DNA of 19,882 bases from Alteromonas sp. (GTDB lineage Bacteria > Margulisbacteria > Marinamargulisbacteria > UBA6595). The DNA lies in the NCBI GenBank assembly GCA_964220215.1, contig CAXPTH010000002.1:1-19882 (forward strand), given 5' to 3'. Made by a program: the position numbers and the translations under genes. The notes under the pieces are model-generated. The model was given only the letters and a program-made list of their open reading frames with translations. It had not been told where the DNA came from and did no database searches. This document shows, piece after piece, positions 1 through 8,608 of this stretch. Within the stretch, counting starts at the first letter, position 1. Every line of letters begins with the position of its first letter.

Positions 1-779
1 CCACCACCACCCCCGTGCTCCTTAAGAGCCACTTGACGCGCCTGAGTCGCTTGAAAAACCCTACGCATGGATATAGCGCCCAGTGTCAAATACGACGACA
101 ACCGAGAACAATGGGTATAAGCCGTCACTGGCGAGGACATGGCCCGTGTATACGGCTGCCCTCGAGTCGCTAAAAACGTCGACAGCGTCTCGGTCGCCAT
201 CGCACTACCCCCCACTTGAATAGCCGTATAGCCATCCTGAACCAAGCCCAACGCCTCAGCCGAAGGCATCGCCTCTGGGTCCACTGGCATCGACTGAATC
301 TGCACAGGGCCGGGCACCAGCGGGGCCTGCATCGTGGCTTTCCAGCGTGCCGCCCACCCGTCCCGATCCTGCAGGCAACGCACCACCCCCGTTTGGGTGG
401 ACTCCTGCCAAACAACACCCCGGGTCTTGGCCCAACGCTGTACCCGACGGTCACGATCATACGTCCAGTGGTTCCCCGTTTCTTGATGGGAAAACACGTG
501 GGTCACCCCCCAGCGCTGAACCAAAGCGTCCAACACCTCGACCGCATCCCCAACCCGAATCACCAAGTGAGCCCCCAGATCTTTTAAATTTTCATCTAAC
601 GACTTTATGCTGTCCACCAGATACTGATACTGCCGATAACTCGTATCTGGTTGTCCCCACAAGTCCGGCTCAACAATATACAGTGCAATAATGGGCCCTT
701 GCTGAGCCGCCAAGCTAAGGGGCTCGTGATCCGTTACCCGCAAATCTCGCTTAAACCAAACAATACTGGTTATGGGCAT
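1..779 (-). CDS. Photolyase/cryptochrome-family protein, N-terminal ~259 aa; runs off the left edge of the window
   Basis: Not in the ORF track because it has no stop in the window. Manual translation from ATG 779 is open to the edge: MPITSIVWFKRDLRVTDHEPL...VFSHQETGNHWTYDRD...GWAARW...CSRLSSYLTLGAISMR. WFKRDLR and SRLSxYLxxGxIS are photolyase-family motifs. Start overlaps the permease stop (770-772). Confidence 0.88.
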   Translation of the reverse strand, partial: MPITSIVWFKRDLRVTDHEPLSLAAQQGPIIALYIVEPDLWGQPDTSYRQYQYLVDSIKSLDENLKDLGAHLVIRVGDAVEVLDALVQRWGVTHVFSHQETGNHWTYDRDRRVQRWAKTRGVVWQESTQTGVVRCLQDRDGWAARWKATMQAPLVPGPVQIQSMPVDPEAMPSAEALGLVQDGYTAIQVGGSAMATETLSTFLATRGQPYTRAMSSPVTAYTHCSRLSSYLTLGAISMRRVFQATQARQVALKEHGGGG

Positions 780-1516
780 CGGGACCCCCAAACCCAATAG
801 CCAACGGCCAATAGACTCCCCACAATAACAACCATAGGGCCAGCCGGAACGTCCAAAAACAAGGCACTCCCACAGCCCACCACCATCATCAGCCCGCCAA
901 ACGACCAGGCGGTTCGCAACGCACACGAGCGCCCCGTAGCCACCAATGCCGGTAAAATTAAACTCGCAAATACCACATACACCCCCACCAATTGCACCGA
1001 TGAGGTAATGGCCAAGGCAAACAAACTATAAAACCCGAGTCCAGACCGCCACCTTGGATGCAAAAACCAGGCCAATACAATGCCAATATAAATCGGCGCA
1101 TGCTTTAGCACGTCCAGCCAAGTGACAAATAACAATTGGCCCGATACCATGTGCTGCAGGGTTTCCCCCCCATGCGGATGGTGCTGCAACACCAAGATCG
1201 CGGCCGATGCTGCGACAACAAAGCTGGTTCCAATAATGGCCTCTTGTCGTTCCGGAACCATCGATTCTATCCATCGAAATGCTGCCGCAGAGAGCAACGC
1301 TGCGCATAACGCCACCCCTTGTATTAACCAAGCGGATGGGTGGTGGACCCAGGTCAACACCCCCACCATGCCCAGCCCCGCAATCTGTGCAACCGCTAAA
1401 TCCATAAAAACAATGCCCCGCTTTAACACTTCCAAACCCAACGGCGCATGGGTTGCCGCAATCATAATTCCGGCAACAAAGGCTGGCAATACCAATACAA
1501 GTAGATCAAGATCCAT
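770..1516 (-). CDS. Metal (Zn/Mn-type) ABC transporter permease, ABC-3/ZnuB family
   Basis: 248 aa, multiple hydrophobic helices; LGLEVLKRGIVFMDLAVAQIAGLG, QEAIIG, SSVQLVGVYVVFASLILPA; directly downstream of a ZnuA-like gene with an 11-nt overlap. Confidence 0.9.
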   Translation of the reverse strand: MDLDLLVLVLPAFVAGIMIAATHAPLGLEVLKRGIVFMDLAVAQIAGLGMVGVLTWVHHPSAWLIQGVALCAALLSAAAFRWIESMVPERQEAIIGTSFVVAASAAILVLQHHPHGGETLQHMVSGQLLFVTWLDVLKHAPIYIGIVLAWFLHPRWRSGLGFYSLFALAITSSVQLVGVYVVFASLILPALVATGRSCALRTAWSFGGLMMVVGCGSALFLDVPAGPMVVIVGSLLAVGYWVWGSRCP

Positions 1517-2405
1517 GATTTAATAGTACAGCAATTGTCTCATCAAATAGGGTTATTAAGTCAACACTGGCATCGGTACCCCCCACTGTATAGGGGAGCC
1601 GAAGCGCTGGAATATTCGTTTTAGACGCCACCCATTCACTGGCTTGGGACGGATCATACGGTGTTCGCAAAATTGCCAATACTGACGGGTCTGTTGCCTG
1701 CTTCAGCACTGTGTTTAAATGAGCAGCCGTTGGCGGCAACCCTGGCACGGGCTCTAGAGATGCAATGGTGGTGACGCCCAACCAATCCAACAGATAATCA
1801 AACGATTGATGATGCACAATCACGGACCGGCCACGCAACGGAGCCGCCTGAATTGTCCATCGCTGAATGGCGGCTTCCCATTGCGCCTCAAAGGCCGTGT
1901 AGCGTTCGGCATACACACCCGCATGATCGGGATCAATCTGCTCCAACCGACCCTGAATTTGACGCGCAATCTGAAGAATATGATGGGGATTTAAATGCAC
2001 ATGGGGGTTGCCGTCCGGGTGCACATCCCCATGGCTGCGATCCACAGAGTCGTTAACGCCCAACATGGGCACATAATCCGCCGCCATAATATTGCCCATA
2101 GCACCCGGTTGGATGCCCACGGGGGCACGCTCCAATAAAATGGGCAACCACCCCACTTCTAAATCTGCCCCCGAGCAAACCAACAACTCGGCCCGTCGAA
2201 TGGCTGCAATTAAACTCGGGCGTGCCCGAATATAATGCGGGTTTTGCTTGGCATGGGTGGCCGAAACCACCCGCACCTGCTCCCCGCCAATTGCTTCGGT
2301 TAAAGCCGCCCATTCGGGCTCACACGTGAACACCGAAACGGCAGCCTGAGCACCGAGCGATGCGGCAATTAAGCTGCCAAAGATGTGTTTAATACTTATG
2401 CGCAC
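1506..2405 (-). CDS. Metal ABC transporter substrate-binding protein, ZnuA/cluster A-I family
   Basis: Signal-peptide-like N-terminus; QNPHYIRARPS, GADLEVGWLP, DRSHGDVHPDGNPHVHLNP, VHHQSFDYL, EPVPGLPPTAAHL. GTG start with GGAG (2412-2415) 6 nt upstream, inside the preceding gene. Confidence 0.92.
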   Translation of the reverse strand: MRISIKHIFGSLIAASLGAQAAVSVFTCEPEWAALTEAIGGEQVRVVSATHAKQNPHYIRARPSLIAAIRRAELLVCSGADLEVGWLPILLERAPVGIQPGAMGNIMAADYVPMLGVNDSVDRSHGDVHPDGNPHVHLNPHHILQIARQIQGRLEQIDPDHAGVYAERYTAFEAQWEAAIQRWTIQAAPLRGRSVIVHHQSFDYLLDWLGVTTIASLEPVPGLPPTAAHLNTVLKQATDPSVLAILRTPYDPSQASEWVASKTNIPALRLPYTVGGTDASVDLITLFDETIAVLLNHGS

Positions 2406-3669
2406 CGTGTGCTCCGATGCTCATCACATATTGAATTATGAACTGATCATCCGACTGATCATTCGCCAACACATTGTGATTGTATTGAAATCGAATTCGG
2501 CTAAATTCACTGTTGGTCCAGTCTAGCATAGCACTCGTTGACCGAGGATTGTGGCCGTTCGCATTAAGAACCTCGTTTGTTTTTAAAGCCGTCGGCACAG
2601 CCGCTGGAGACAGTTCACTGTAGCGAACCCCCACACGCCATTGCGGTGCCAGTTTATAAACAGTTTGTAAATACCAACCCGTTGCATGGGCATTAATCGC
2701 ATGGGGGTCTTGATCTTTAATGGTGCTTTTTCCCCCAATGCGATACACCCCATCGGTATGCTGCCAGAAGTACTCACCCTGAACGATTAGTTCTTGTTGT
2801 CTGGGATTGCCCGTCATCGCCCACGTGTACCGAACATCCACGGCATCCAGCGCCGTATGGCCATAAAAAGCCGTACTATCTGATTCCGATTCTTCGTTTG
2901 CAACAAACCGTTCCCCCACATCGCCGGCCAGCCGGTAAGCCCCGAGTCGCCAGCTTTGATTGTATCCAATATCATCGCCAACGCGAACAAACGCCGACCA
3001 TGCTTGTGTTTTATCCCCAGTTGCGCCACCAAACGGCATATCATCACCTCGGAAAATACCACCCCCCAATTCTGTGTACATCTGTGTGGGCAACACATAG
3101 GTCAATTCCGCACCATCATCATTAAACGCACCATTTAAAAAGGCTCGATTGGGAAGGGGGCGATCCGCAAAATCATGGGCATGCAAATGGTGTTCGTTTA
3201 AATATCCAAATGTCCAAAACGCACGACCAAACTTAGCAGTTAGCCCATCCAATAGCCCAAACCCCGGCAATGTTTGAACATACGCTTCTTCTAGTTCCAC
3301 CTTATCTTCACCGTCTTCTCGAACGATGGCGGCCGTCAAACGTCCATAAAATTTATCATCCACACTGGCTGACATCGCCAATTCAGATTCGCCAATTGCA
3401 AACCCTTCCGACTTTCGATGGCCTTCATGCCCAACCGCAAACCCCGCAATATCCCCATGCGCAGCGGTATAACTGCGGTACCCGCCATTTAGCAATAGTC
3501 CAATGGATGGATTAAACCGATTGCTATACACAGTGGGTTTGACTTCATACTGTTTTTTTAATGCGTCAACCTCAGCACGCAATTCAGCCAATTCAGAATT
3601 GGCAACTGCTGCAGGGGATAGGCCAATAGCCGAGACTAGCAAGGCGGCCATAATTGTATTTAATTTCAT
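2389..3669 (-). CDS. His-rich outer-membrane beta-barrel protein of the type associated with zinc-uptake operons
   Basis: Signal peptide (MKLNTIMAALLVSAIGLSPAAVA), short coiled coil (ELAELRAEVDALKKQ), FNPSIGLLLNG, VELEEAY, YLNEHHLHAHDFADRP, amphipathic beta-strands, SEFSRIRFQY and C-terminal GAHGAHKY. Confidence 0.8.
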   Translation of the reverse strand: MKLNTIMAALLVSAIGLSPAAVANSELAELRAEVDALKKQYEVKPTVYSNRFNPSIGLLLNGGYRSYTAAHGDIAGFAVGHEGHRKSEGFAIGESELAMSASVDDKFYGRLTAAIVREDGEDKVELEEAYVQTLPGFGLLDGLTAKFGRAFWTFGYLNEHHLHAHDFADRPLPNRAFLNGAFNDDGAELTYVLPTQMYTELGGGIFRGDDMPFGGATGDKTQAWSAFVRVGDDIGYNQSWRLGAYRLAGDVGERFVANEESESDSTAFYGHTALDAVDVRYTWAMTGNPRQQELIVQGEYFWQHTDGVYRIGGKSTIKDQDPHAINAHATGWYLQTVYKLAPQWRVGVRYSELSPAAVPTALKTNEVLNANGHNPRSTSAMLDWTNSEFSRIRFQYNHNVLANDQSDDQFIIQYVMSIGAHGAHKY

Positions 3670-3674
3670 AAAAA

Positions 3675-3680
3675 CTCCTC
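3675..3680 (-). promoter_or_regulatory. Shine-Dalgarno GAGGAG of the outer-membrane protein gene
   Basis: Minus strand reads GAGGAG-ttttt-ATG(3669). Confidence 0.85.
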
Positions 3681-3683
3681 GAT

Positions 3684-3707
3684 AATAAGCAGTCCACGCT
3701 GCTTATT
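3684..3707 (-). promoter_or_regulatory. Perfect 9-bp stem-loop between leader ORF and outer-membrane gene; possible attenuator or translation-control element
   Basis: aataagcag (3684-3692) and ctgcttatt (3699-3707) are exact reverse complements around a 6-nt loop; on the mRNA the stem ends 3 nt before the SD. Function inferred. Confidence 0.6.
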
Positions 3708-3731: not shown

Positions 3732-4019
3732 TTAAAAACGGAGCGGCGGTGCCCGAGGATGGCTACCGACATGGATGCGTCCGCATTGTTGGCCAATCAC
3801 CACAAACACAATACCCAAGGCAATTCGTGGACTTAGAAACGCCGAACGAATAGCGGTGTGTGGCAGGATCGTGATTGAACATACCGAACACGTGCGCGTC
3901 GAATGGTCGTGCCCATCCCAAGTGTGTTCTAGGTCATGGGCCCAGCCCATCGCCATAATGCCCAAAAATAGGACAAACACCAATTTGGGTAACGCACCCC
4001 GACGAATCTTACGCATCAT
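3732..4019 (-). CDS. Putative metal-sensing leader/arrest peptide, DUF2946/CruR-like (signal-like N-terminus, His cluster, CxxC, C-terminal RAPP)
   Basis: MMRKIRRGALPKLVFVLFLGIMAMGWA-HDLEHTWDGHDH-STRT-CSVC-...-HPRAPPLRF*. ATG 4019 (95 aa) or 4016 preferred over GTG 4037 because a -10-like box lies at 4028-4036. Directly upstream of metal-uptake genes. Confidence 0.78.
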   Translation of the reverse strand: MMRKIRRGALPKLVFVLFLGIMAMGWAHDLEHTWDGHDHSTRTCSVCSITILPHTAIRSAFLSPRIALGIVFVVIGQQCGRIHVGSHPRAPPLRF

Positions 4020-4027
4020 ACAACAAA

Positions 4028-4036
4028 ATCGTATCA
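4028..4036 (-). promoter_or_regulatory. Candidate extended -10 (TG-a-TACGAT) for the leader ORF/metal-uptake operon
   Basis: 8 nt upstream of ATG 4019; same geometry as other operon-leading genes in the window. Confidence 0.4.
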
Positions 4037-4092
4037 CAGGATTATTGCAATCAGCTAGCGTTTAAGATTTATAAACTATTATTTTACGTGTG

Positions 4093-5838: not shown

Positions 5839-7329
5839 ATGCATATTTTACTTACTGGCGTAACGGGTTATATTGCCCAACGACTGTTGCCGGCTATACT
5901 CACAGACGATGTCCGCGTTACCTGCTGTGTTCGAGATTTAGACCGATTTAATTACAATTATCACAACCACCCCAACTTATCTGCTATTGTTGTGGATTTT
6001 CTGGATGACACCATTGAACTACCCCATGATATTGATGCGGCTTTTTATTTTATTCATTCGATGGCAATTCCCACCGCCGATTTTTACAAACTGGAAACTC
6101 AATGCGCCAATAATTTTAAATCAGCGATAGAAAAAACACAGGTTCAGCAGGTGATTTACCTCGGTGGCATTGTGAATGAAGCCAATTTATCGCCCCATTT
6201 AAAATCTCGCTTGCATGTTGAAGCATTACTGCGCAGCGACCAGTACGCACTCACAACACTCCGTGCGGGTATTATTGTGGGATCGGGCTCCGCTTCGTTT
6301 GATATTATTCACGATTTGGTTGAAAAAATTCCCATTATGGTAACGCCCAAATGGATTAAAACACGCTGCCAACCCATTGCCATTCGCGATGTCATTAAGT
6401 GTTTACACCGCAGCATACTCAACCCAGCCACCTATAACCAAAGCTTTGATATTGGTGGCCCCGATATTTTATCGTACAAACAGATGCTCCTCCAATTTGC
6501 TGAAGTCCGTCGACTGCGGCGCTATATTTTTACAACCTCATTATTATCACCCCGACTGTCCTCCTATTGGCTCAACTTCGTCACACGAACCACCTATGCA
6601 CTTGCTCGGCATTTGGTTGATAGCATGAAAAACGAAGTTGTGTGCCGGGACACCCGGTTGCTGGAATTGCTAAATATTAATCCCATGACGTACCGAGAAG
6701 CCATCAAAGCCGCTTTTCATCGAATTGAACAAAACGACGTTGTATCCAGCTGGACAGACTCCCCCCATCATTATTTTTTAAAAAAAGGCATTGCGCATTA
6801 TACCCGAGTGCCCACCCATAGCTGTTTTATTGATCGGCGTCAATTACCCACCCAAAACCCCAAACAATCGCTGGAAAAAATATGGCAATTGGGCGGCCAA
6901 TCGGGCTGGTATTTTGGCAATGGATTATGGAAACTGCGTGGCTTCATTGACCAGTTGGTGGGTGGGGTTGGCTTGCGCCGGGGCCGCCGAAGCCCAACGG
7001 ACATTAAACCCGGGGACTCGTTGGATTTTTGGCGGGTCCTCATTGCCGACAAATCCAAAAAACGCTTGCTCCTCTATGCTGAAATGAAAGTGCCCGGCGA
7101 AGCCTGGTTGGAGTTTCAAATCCGGGACAACACCCTCATTCAAACCGCTACGTTTCGCCCCTTGGGTGTATTCGGGCGGCTGTACTGGTATACCTGCTTG
7201 CCTTTCCATCATTTTATATTTAATAAATTGCTTGAAGCCCTGGCTACAGACTTCCAAACGCCGCCAATGCCTCCCGACGCGAGTGGTCAACCGACACCAC
7301 CGGTCGCGGATAATGCACCCCCAACGTAA
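5839..7329 (+). CDS. Atypical SDR NAD(P)-binding protein with C-terminal DUF2867-type domain (YbjT-like)
   Basis: ILLTGVTGYIA Rossmann motif; FYFIHSM, LSPHLKSR, LRAGIIVGSGSASF, QPIAIRDV; C-terminal GGVGLRRGRR, GDSLDFWRV, LYAEMKVPGEAWLEF, FRPLGVFGRLYWY. Confidence 0.88.
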   Translation: MHILLTGVTGYIAQRLLPAILTDDVRVTCCVRDLDRFNYNYHNHPNLSAIVVDFLDDTIELPHDIDAAFYFIHSMAIPTADFYKLETQCANNFKSAIEKTQVQQVIYLGGIVNEANLSPHLKSRLHVEALLRSDQYALTTLRAGIIVGSGSASFDIIHDLVEKIPIMVTPKWIKTRCQPIAIRDVIKCLHRSILNPATYNQSFDIGGPDILSYKQMLLQFAEVRRLRRYIFTTSLLSPRLSSYWLNFVTRTTYALARHLVDSMKNEVVCRDTRLLELLNINPMTYREAIKAAFHRIEQNDVVSSWTDSPHHYFLKKGIAHYTRVPTHSCFIDRRQLPTQNPKQSLEKIWQLGGQSGWYFGNGLWKLRGFIDQLVGGVGLRRGRRSPTDIKPGDSLDFWRVLIADKSKKRLLLYAEMKVPGEAWLEFQIRDNTLIQTATFRPLGVFGRLYWYTCLPFHHFIFNKLLEALATDFQTPPMPPDASGQPTPPVADNAPPT

Positions 7330-8608
7330 TGCCAGCCTGATCCAGGACTGACTTGGGAGCTTCCCACGGATTAAACAAATACCGATTGGGCATGGCCGAT
7401 AACTCCGGAACATAGCGACGGGTATAATGCCCATCGGCATCAAACTTTTTACCCTGCAAAATAGGGTTAAAAATTCGAAAATACGGTGCCGCATCAGCCC
7501 CCGAACCAGCAATCCACTGCCAGCCAAAGCTATTATTGGCTACATTGGCATCAAACAAACAATCCCAAAACCACTCAAAGCCCCGTCGCCAATGAATCAG
7601 CAAATTTTTAACTAAAAAAGACCCAACAATCATCCGAACTCGGTTGTGCATTGTACCGGTTTGCCACAATTCACGCATCCCAGCATCCACAATCGGATAG
7701 CCGGTTTTTCCCTGTTGCCATGCCTGTAACAACGGGCCGTGGTCCCGCCATGGAAAAGCATCAAACCGCTTGTTGAGGTTTTCAGTGTACAGCATTGGAT
7801 AATCCCGCAGTAAATAATGCGCAAACTCTCGCCAGACTAGCTGCCGGCAAAATGCATCCTGGGTGGGGTCAATGCCACGCTCAGCCACCGCATACCAGAT
7901 CACACGAGGCGATACCTCCCCAAACGCTAAATGCGGAGACAACCGCGACACATGGGGCTCACTGGGCGTGTTGCGACCATCCGCATAATTCTGAATAGTA
8001 TCCAAAAATTCGGCCAATCGAGCCGCCGCACCCTGCTCCCCCGGCTGCCACGTTGCTGTGATTGTAGACGCCCAATCCAAGGCCGGCAGCAACGCCGAAG
8101 TATCCCCCAATCCAACGGGCACAACGCTGGGCTTAGCCATGGGAACCGGTTGGGTAGGCGGGGTTTCAATACAGCGTCGATAATATGGCGTAAAGACTTT
8201 GTAGGGCTGCCCATCCGATTTAACCACCGAGCCTGGCTCCCACAAGCATCCATCACTGTAGCCATAGCAGTCAACCCCCAACGCAGCTAAATGCTCATGG
8301 ACCGGCTGATAATCAATACCCGGAACCGCATTCCAATACACCGCTGTTACCGAATGCTGCCGAATTAGGGCATCCCAATCGCTCATGCTGGTTAAAATGG
8401 ATAAATGGCCACCCAGTTGATCAGACAACTGCTTTAAACTATGGTATAGCCAAACCCGACTCGCAGCCCCCGTGGGGATGGGCGCCCACTCATCGATTAG
8501 GCCATAGACTGGTACCACAGTGGCATCCTGAGTGGCTGCCAATAATGCCGGATTATCGGATAGCCGAAGATCGCGTTGAAACCAATGAATCGTGACCCGT
8601 TTTGTCAT
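7244..8608 (-). CDS. phr: Deoxyribodipyrimidine (CPD) photolyase, class III-like
   Basis: WFQRDLRLSDNPAL, PYKVFTPYY, SRLSPHLAFGEVSPR, WREF, GKTGYPIVDAGMRELWQTGTMHNRVRMIVGSFLVK, GWQWIAGSGADAAPYFRIFNP. ATGA overlap with the antiporter stop. Confidence 0.93.
   Translation of the reverse strand: MTKRVTIHWFQRDLRLSDNPALLAATQDATVVPVYGLIDEWAPIPTGAASRVWLYHSLKQLSDQLGGHLSILTSMSDWDALIRQHSVTAVYWNAVPGIDYQPVHEHLAALGVDCYGYSDGCLWEPGSVVKSDGQPYKVFTPYYRRCIETPPTQPVPMAKPSVVPVGLGDTSALLPALDWASTITATWQPGEQGAAARLAEFLDTIQNYADGRNTPSEPHVSRLSPHLAFGEVSPRVIWYAVAERGIDPTQDAFCRQLVWREFAHYLLRDYPMLYTENLNKRFDAFPWRDHGPLLQAWQQGKTGYPIVDAGMRELWQTGTMHNRVRMIVGSFLVKNLLIHWRRGFEWFWDCLFDANVANNSFGWQWIAGSGADAAPYFRIFNPILQGKKFDADGHYTRRYVPELSAMPNRYLFNPWEAPKSVLDQAGITLGVHYPRPVVSVDHSRREALAAFGSL

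Follow-up and report, generated by a model that had tools for sequence, protein, structure and literature searches.

One of the closest known counterparts of the gene reported here is cruR (Bp2923; DUF2946, PF11162) of Bordetella pertussis, the product of which has a CXXC motif at residues 90-93 and a RAPP motif at residues 139-142, a spacing of 48 from the first Cys to the Arg, and in which lengthening by five residues impairs copper control (PMC9426467). Arrest by CruR was shown in vitro (PMC12992588). CutF of Rhodobacter capsulatus is an exported protein with a Cys site (CxxxC) and a C-terminal proline motif (PPP); copper induces its stall, which exposes the next gene's Shine-Dalgarno (SD) sequence in a system with an intergenic stem-loop and turns on a detoxifying oxidase, with sensing placed in the periplasm (bioRxiv 2022.11.11.516240, 2025.02.05.636593). 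ApdA, ApdP and SecM are small exported proteins encoded upstream of the regulated gene with a RAPP core near the C terminus; they monitor export and precede sec genes, and the accessible sections of PMC12992588 describe no conserved metal site for them. ZrgD (DUF2607, PF10795), a 101-aa one-helix protein whose gene comes first in the Zur-regulated zrg zinc-uptake operon of Vibrio, is assigned no function in the accessible parts of the papers that describe it, and its knockout had no growth effect (PMC9817125, PMC9820375). Control of bacterial zinc uptake in the cited papers is transcriptional, via cytoplasmic Zur. RAPP upstream ORFs that precede ZrgA and zinc-regulated receptors are listed in published source tables, where zinc is not discussed; as far as accessible, the main text of PMC12992588 has no mention of 'zinc', DUF2796 or DUF2607, and the CutF paper associates His-only clusters with Ni/Co, the word 'zinc' being absent from the accessible main text (bioRxiv 2022.11.11.516240). 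No test of a zinc-sensing arrest peptide was found among the top-ranked matches in the literature searched, the coverage of which leaves most subscription journals outside.

The window, by which is meant the whole 19,882-nt stretch of DNA analysed, carries an ORF that is likely to encode a zinc version of the switch shown so far only for copper. The preliminary description of this DNA had read the ORF as a candidate RAPP arrest leader, of the CruR kind, that heads a zinc-type operon, a proposal the core of which is well supported by conservation, spacing, neighbouring genes and Zur-like boxes, all of them properties of sequence. The positions that it had given for the ORF, for the segment HDLEHTWDGHDH, for CSVC and RAPP, for the 41-residue spacer between these two motifs and for the 62-nt gap between the leader and the porin ATG (3669) were all confirmed (Table 1). 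The ORF encodes a conserved leader peptide of the CruR/CutF superfamily, and by analogy a ribosome translating it likely stalls at RAPP. Because published tables already pair such ORFs with zinc genes, and the mechanism class has been described for copper, the result builds on an established idea and does not open a new one.

Table 1. Positions in the window of the leader, its parts and the downstream genes.
Feature	Position	Strand	Basis or remark
Leader ORF, 95 aa, ATG start	3732..4019	-	candidate ribosome-arrest peptide
Hydrophobic helix near the N terminus, residues 11-27, either a signal peptide or a signal anchor	3939..3989	-	hydropathy, AlphaFold
His cluster H28, H32, H37, H39, predicted metal ligands, HDLEHTWDGHDH	3903..3938	-	conservation in profile matches
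CSVC, C44-S-V-C47 (residues 44-47)	3879..3890	-	C44 invariant, C47 variable
RAPP putative arrest motif, residues 89-92; Pro91 in the P site at the putative stall	3744..3755	-	
Extended -10-like hexamer, 8 nt 5' of the leader ATG	4028..4033	-	possibly leaderless mRNA
Predicted anti-SD in the His87-Pro88-Arg89 codons	3753..3761	-	MFE fold, pair probability
9-bp hairpin, intergenic, directly before the SD	3684..3707	-	RNA folding
SD of the porin gene	3674..3682	-	sequence, RNA folding
Outer-membrane beta-barrel, 426 aa, predicted plug-less porin of 'omr' type	2389..3669	-	fold search
ZnuA-like cluster A-I metal-binding protein	1506..2405	-	PF01297; three His align with ZnuA (H57, H135, H199)
ABC-3 permease, ZnuB-like	770..1516	-	PF00950

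Of 3369 ORFs between 60 and 200 aa long, read in six frames from the window's genome (82% complete), only 5 end in R[AG]PP, which argues that the motif of the leader is not due to chance. The hydropathy maximum of the leader is at residues 9-27, bearing out the signal-like N-terminus claimed earlier, and a second hydrophobic stretch lies at about residues 57-75. The AlphaFold model has a helix at residues 10-32 with pLDDT above 90 for residues 11-30; since it is confident only for this helix, the model is silent on the metal site. Searches of Pfam and NCBIfam returned zero matches for the leader. Compared with the closest relative (locus L001), the leader has 16 non-synonymous and 10 synonymous codon changes, and all six His and Cys residues and RAPP are identical. 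An ORF on the opposite strand (3775-4065, plus) overlaps the leader and is largely open in L001 too, so the comparison with that locus does not discriminate between the two strands; it is the minus strand that carries the motifs shared between phyla. In RNA runs at most 17% of sequence words were matched. RNA contigs from four studies cover parts of the leader and porin genes at depths of 2-5, none spanning the junction, and this coverage is not evidence of expression. A sigma-70 scan gave one site, at chance level, and zero terminators. In 14 of 17 leaders of the window's phylum (L039-L062, L152, L153) a -10-like hexamer has its end 5-9 nt ahead of the ATG, against a background of 19% of long ORFs in the window's genome; no SD is evident in the phylum leaders with this hexamer, and its placement is absent from proteobacterial sets. 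The arrangement suggests that the phylum leaders may be translated from leaderless mRNAs.

The likeness to CruR is close in several respects, the leader being encoded by the first gene of a metal-uptake operon, bearing an export signal and having RAPP three codons before the stop; metal is predicted to relieve the stall in both. The leader differs in its length (95 aa versus 145 aa), in the position of its His cluster directly after the membrane helix, in a second Cys that is dispensable in the family, and in cargo, which is of zinc type with a plug-less porin where CruR precedes a TonB copper receptor. The DUF2946 model (PF11162), proposed in the preliminary description as a check, had no match to the leader at E<=1 and matched 20 of 137 relatives weakly, the best at 2.4e-5. 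With respect to the features that define DUF2946, CXXC and a RAPP near the C terminus are both present, but the two motifs are 41 residues apart rather than 45 ± 2 (45 in CruR), and the operon consists of porin, ZnuA-like and ZnuB-like genes rather than of genes for copper homeostasis. The leader belongs to the rule-based CutF-like class of Ozturk et al., which comprises proteins under 150 aa that have a signal peptide, a PP among the final 15 residues, a same-strand gene within 1000 nt and a Cys/His site (bioRxiv 2022.11.11.516240), as it is 95 aa long with an N terminus hydrophobic by hydropathy, PP at residues 91-92 and the porin gene 62 nt away. Like CutF, it would be an exported protein that combines a Cys site with a proline motif near its C terminus. 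However, metal should release the stall of an uptake leader, the opposite of what copper does to CutF, and the predicted anti-SD is in the leader's own last codons rather than in an intergenic stem-loop. An RNA structure that hides the SD and is opened by the stall, as in CutF, was predicted for the window and for the family average but not for L001. The leader is predicted to resemble CruR in sign and CutF in output.

The resemblance to ZrgD extends to size (about 100 aa), a single membrane helix, a His cluster with Cys and the position at the head of a zinc-uptake operon, which for the window is drawn from the cargo's annotation and an inferred substrate. ZrgD ends in R[AS]PP with a spacing of 43-44, like the window leader. 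Two members of the leader family, L100 (30.4 bits) and L133 (36.7 bits), pass the PF10795 cut-off of 24 and are both matched by the family profiles; on these scores the leader family overlaps DUF2607. The window leader itself had no match to PF10795. A search of the ESM Atlas with the window leader returned a DUF2607 cluster at 0.94, rank 17, which is taken as a lead only. Over 401 gammaproteobacterial genomes PF10795 had only 2 matches.

Conservation of the leader was evaluated at loci encoding homologs of the porin, 34 in total of which 32 had upstream DNA. The preliminary description had predicted that the motifs would be conserved in such syntenic loci, and this held for the majority, with an R[AG]PP leader at 19 of the 32 and a first-Cys-to-Arg spacing of 47-50 in 19 of 21 leaders picked by synteny alone; it did not hold throughout, since 10 loci had no leader, 2 had HAPP and 1 had a half leader cut by an N-gap. 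Among more distant porin loci of the window's phylum with room upstream, 17 of 26 had a leader and 9 had none, one of the loci lacking it in these two sets being in a genome of the same genus. The loci are interrelated by descent, so the statistics given for them are overstated. A close porin relative bears the label UBP8, which we take to be Candidatus Margulisbacteria. In the same-genus genome (G001; L002 / L037) the operon is found at the same place with a Zur-like palindrome upstream and no leader. Leaders L033, L034 and L143 end in HAPP instead of RAPP and constitute a natural test of the essential Arg.

A family profile built from 22 leaders (threshold E<=0.001) matched 831 cluster representatives at 50% identity, and the window leader still scored 28.1 bits against it after rows at least 50% identical to the leader were removed. 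In the best 150 of the 831 matches His28 was present in 149, His37 in 144, His39 in 146 and H32 in 79, while Cys44 was present in all 150 and Cys47 in 27; R[AG]PP was found in 141 (RAPP 123, RGPP 18). The site claimed earlier, a His cluster with CxxC, was therefore borne out for His28 and the first Cys but not in general for the second Cys, although His plus CxxC was found in 19 of 19 phylum leaders. Judged by this conservation, the His cluster with CxxC is the local form of a site with a fixed core of His28 and the first Cys. The membrane helix is common to relatives, and one cultured bacterium with a family member is Methylophaga thiooxydans. Gln22 is kept in 145 of the best 150 matches and is Met in the window leader. 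The first-Cys-to-Arg spacing was 47-49 in 123 of 134 measured among the best 150 matches, whereas the spacer sequence between Cys and Arg is unconserved. The 48 of CruR is the family mode; the 44 of the window leader is 4 residues short of it and below all 19 phylum leaders (45-49), but 43-44 is also seen in DUF2607 proteins (L133 and, counted by eye, two supplement rows).

The short spacer, the change of Gln22 to Met and the displaced anti-SD would also fit a real family of which the window copy has decayed or is merely a small secreted metal-binding protein. The absence of the leader from the same-genus genome, the excess of non-synonymous over synonymous changes against L001 (16 versus 10) and the report that a Vibrio zrgD knockout grows normally under zinc chelation (PMC9820375) point the same way. 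Against decay are the six unchanged His and Cys residues and RAPP in L001 and the occurrence of the same 43-44 spacing in DUF2607 proteins, and we regard this explanation as highly improbable. A growth defect would not be expected from loss of zrgD, because deletion of a leader acting in cis also removes the anti-SD.

The downstream genes agree with the zinc-type uptake operon claimed earlier, in that a porin, a ZnuA-family protein (PF01297) and an ABC-3 permease (PF00950) were found. The fold search with the porin gave OprP as top match (4.4e-12); there was no Pfam or NCBIfam match beyond a sub-threshold one to DUF3237, and relatives of the porin were absent from the viral contig collection searched. 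The binding protein matched PF01297 at 3.6e-39, with ZnuA as the top solved relatives, and the permease matched PF00950 at 1.1e-13. The starts and stops of the three genes overlap. An ATPase gene is absent from the operon, and the ZnuB-like gene is the only ABC-3 permease gene found in the 82%-complete genome. The porin is 30.5% identical to the first gene product of a porin-znuA-znuB operon of Vibrio campbellii, which has the same three genes (binding protein 40% identical) without the leader and two Zur-like boxes directly upstream. By annotation it is likened to the omr-znuAII-znuBII operon of V. parahaemolyticus, induced 283-1034-fold by zinc limitation (PMC9817125), the orthology of the two Vibrio operons being based on names and order only.

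Searched with the profile alone, sets of 401 genomes each from Alphaproteobacteria and Gammaproteobacteria gave matches in 27 and 46 genomes, respectively, and inspection of leaders found in this way further addressed the metal. The 56 loci inspected (26 alpha, 29 gamma and 1 extra second match, two of the 56 duplicating the first leader set, with 16 gamma matches having come without loci) had downstream of the leader the same porin family in 40, ZnuD-like TonB receptors in 10 and ZrgA in 3; the remainder were one PAS protein, one unknown gene and one contig end. The 40 porin neighbours are partly circular evidence, since the profile was built from porin-linked leaders, and the ZnuD and ZrgA partners are free of this circularity. 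ZnuD was the best NCBIfam match of the receptors, which are truncated by the locus edge and score below the curated cut-off. No recognised copper gene was present among 55 downstream neighbours, one of which was unidentified. In a metagenome scan with Photobacterium ZrgA, 10 loci were obtained and a leader was found in 2 of the 7 examined upstream, the other 3 having 104 or fewer bases before the match.

Boxes of the form TGTTAT-N3-ATAACA, with at most 2 mismatches, were present within 300 nt upstream in 10 of the 56 loci (16.7 kb) compared with 6 matches in the other 160 kb. Its sequence agrees with the Zur site that PMC9817125 gives for the zrg operon of Vibrio, and the two boxes upstream of the V. 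campbellii operon are of this type. None was found upstream of the window leader, where there is only a weak, 2-mismatch match to a second palindrome, TGCAA-N5-TTGCA, which is similar to a Zur site predicted in Desulfovibrio (PMC545781). The latter palindrome, counted with two mismatches allowed as a pattern picked after looking and among kin that are non-independent, is upstream of 7 of 9 leaderless versus 2 of 19 leader-bearing porin loci in the window's phylum. The single Fur-family protein of the genome matched Fur best, with all models below cut-off and no assignment to Zur.

The same arrest switch could respond to a metal other than zinc (Cu, Co/Ni or Mn) or be promiscuous. The CxxC of the window leader is the copper motif of CruR, His-rich CutF-like clusters are tied to Ni/Co genes (bioRxiv 2022.11.11.516240), the binding protein scores against MntC too, and zinc has a moderate effect on the target mRNA of CruR. 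This alternative is nonetheless unlikely in view of the absence of recognised copper genes from the 55 neighbours, where three unrelated classes of zinc-uptake genes are found instead, the enrichment of Zur-like boxes upstream and the position of ZnuA as the top solved relatives of the binding protein. Moreover, a separate CruR-like locus in the genome could serve copper. A second RAPP-ending ORF (G000:C7:36179-40100; L126:1680-5604) is followed there by genes for a TonB-dependent receptor and a PepSY_TM protein, the layout of cruR-bfrG-bp2921; the ORF has no Pfam match or CxxC, and its start is uncertain.

RNA folding predicts an output that the preliminary description had missed, a ribosome-binding-site switch as for CutF or SecM. 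In the window four of six SD bases pair with the anti-SD at a probability of 0.8-0.95, and placing a ribosome footprint at RAPP lifts the computed probability of an unpaired SD from 0.07-0.10 to 0.42-0.53. Averaged across 22 loci, SD opening cost 6.2 kcal/mol for the free RNA, 3.4 kcal/mol for the stalled state and 7.1 kcal/mol with the footprint 10 codons upstream; the cost fell by more than 1 kcal/mol in 15 of the 22. In 51 further loci (the 56 inspected minus 4 skipped and 1 without a start), complementarity to the SD peaks at the P site at -11.0 kcal/mol, whereas segments lying at least 10 nt upstream gave -5.7 to -7.6 kcal/mol. It exceeded that of synonymous recodings at p<=0.05 in 17 of the 51 (median p 0.09). 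Most relatives have the anti-SD just after RAPP and running into the stop codon, with its changes matched in the SD. The anti-SD of the window is instead upstream of the P site; its advantage over synonymous recoding was not significant (p 0.18), nor was the fold z-score of the whole region (-1.09). In the full-length fold of L001 the switch was absent (SD 0.31 to 0.31-0.32), and clear anti-SD pairing was not seen in L133, the one ZrgD-type locus folded. Since the last codons of the leader are predicted to pair with the porin ribosome-binding site, stalling would likely turn uptake on and metal binding turn it off.

The weak switch signal in the window's own genus, together with the presence of genes for both Rho and EF-P in the genome and the Rho termination by which CruR acts, would be in accord with a zinc-sensing stall the output of which is mainly Rho-dependent transcription termination. 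The intergenic regions are short for such a mechanism (62 nt here, median 80 in 51 loci, versus 162 nt in CruR). Pairing of anti-SD with SD is family-wide, cognate pairs having -11.7 versus -8.9 kcal/mol for non-cognate pairs in 17 loci, a comparison confounded by GC content and kinship. Termination as the main output is accordingly considered quite unlikely, although Rho termination and SD occlusion are not exclusive.

We consider it reasonably probable that the leader stalled at RAPP frees the SD of the porin gene and that zinc binding releases the stall, switching the porin-ZnuA-ZnuB operon off. Observed are the ORF, the family conservation, the spacing, the neighbouring genes and the sequence complementarity. 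The leader would be targeted to Sec with its His/Cys segment outward, and by analogy with CruR and ApdP the ribosome would stall with Pro91 in the P site, a position taken from the CruR toeprint (PMC12992588). The stalled ribosome would uncover the porin ribosome-binding site, so that the uptake genes are on. Zinc as the presumed ligand would then close the His/Cys site, whose His28 lies where the membrane helix ends, and the folding induced would pull on the chain, release the stall and turn uptake off. That metal relieves the stall is deduced from the uptake cargo and from the geometry in which the stall opens the SD.

At the putative arrest Cys44 would be 47 residues from the P site in the window and about 51 in the family. 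The peptidyl transferase center is about 50 extended residues from the periplasmic end of SecY (bioRxiv 2021.02.06.430026), and folding force is transmissible from the periplasm (PMC7513700). The earlier claim that the spacer is one exit-tunnel length is consequently only one of two equal fits, since a distance of 47-51 residues fits the exit tunnel plus the SecY channel as well as the tunnel alone. Periplasmic sensing is favoured slightly over sensing in the cytoplasm, the mode proposed for CruR, which is nearly as likely because CruR, with the same spacing, works without its export signal.

A stalling peptide that monitors secretion, membrane insertion or thiol oxidation in the manner of SecM or ApdP, or boosts downstream translation, would involve no metal sensing. 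Secretion monitoring is an established role of RAPP peptides that carry export signals (PMC12992588), and the second hydrophobic stretch of the leader could be read in this way. That stretch, however, starts only about 30 residues from the P site where 45-50 are needed for SecY, His28 and Cys44 hardly vary and stand at a fixed distance to RAPP, and the neighbours are zinc-uptake genes and not sec genes. A monitor of this kind is therefore very unlikely.

A wider form of the zinc-released stall is offered tentatively, as somewhat short of probable. The leader may belong to a widespread zinc-sensing arrest branch including ZrgD (DUF2607), in which a His/Cys site anchored in the membrane would read periplasmic zinc through SecY, its folding would pull the ribosome off an anti-SD in the last codons, and the leader would stand in for Zur in the phylum. 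The last part derives from the leader-bearing operons of the phylum, which are mostly without the palindrome carried by leaderless ones. If true, a translational switch, maybe reading zinc outside the cytoplasm, would be a second and faster layer of control, and DUF2607/ZrgD and hundreds of unannotated small genes would acquire a function. The natural series His3Cys, His2Cys2 and CxxC would let one ask how a single arrest scaffold is adapted to different metals and opposite signs.

The window porin shares 39-59% identity with its counterparts in Proteobacteria and other phyla and only 25-38%, in partial matches, with porins of its own class outside the genus (L038-L064), hinting that the gene may have been acquired horizontally. 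In L027, L030 and L031 the ZnuA-like gene and the porin gene about 2 kb upstream of it open with almost identical signal peptides and 5' sequences, which suggests that a translation-start region was duplicated. Divergent cbtA-like genes (PF09490) are near the operon in L012, L014 and L017, and a sequence resembling a cobalamin riboswitch was recognised by eye upstream in leaderless loci (L012-L015, L026 group). The gene 3' of the permease (window 1-770, minus strand) runs off the window and has a DNA photolyase as counterpart in L002; a second photolyase-like ORF was recognised by eye at 7244-8608.
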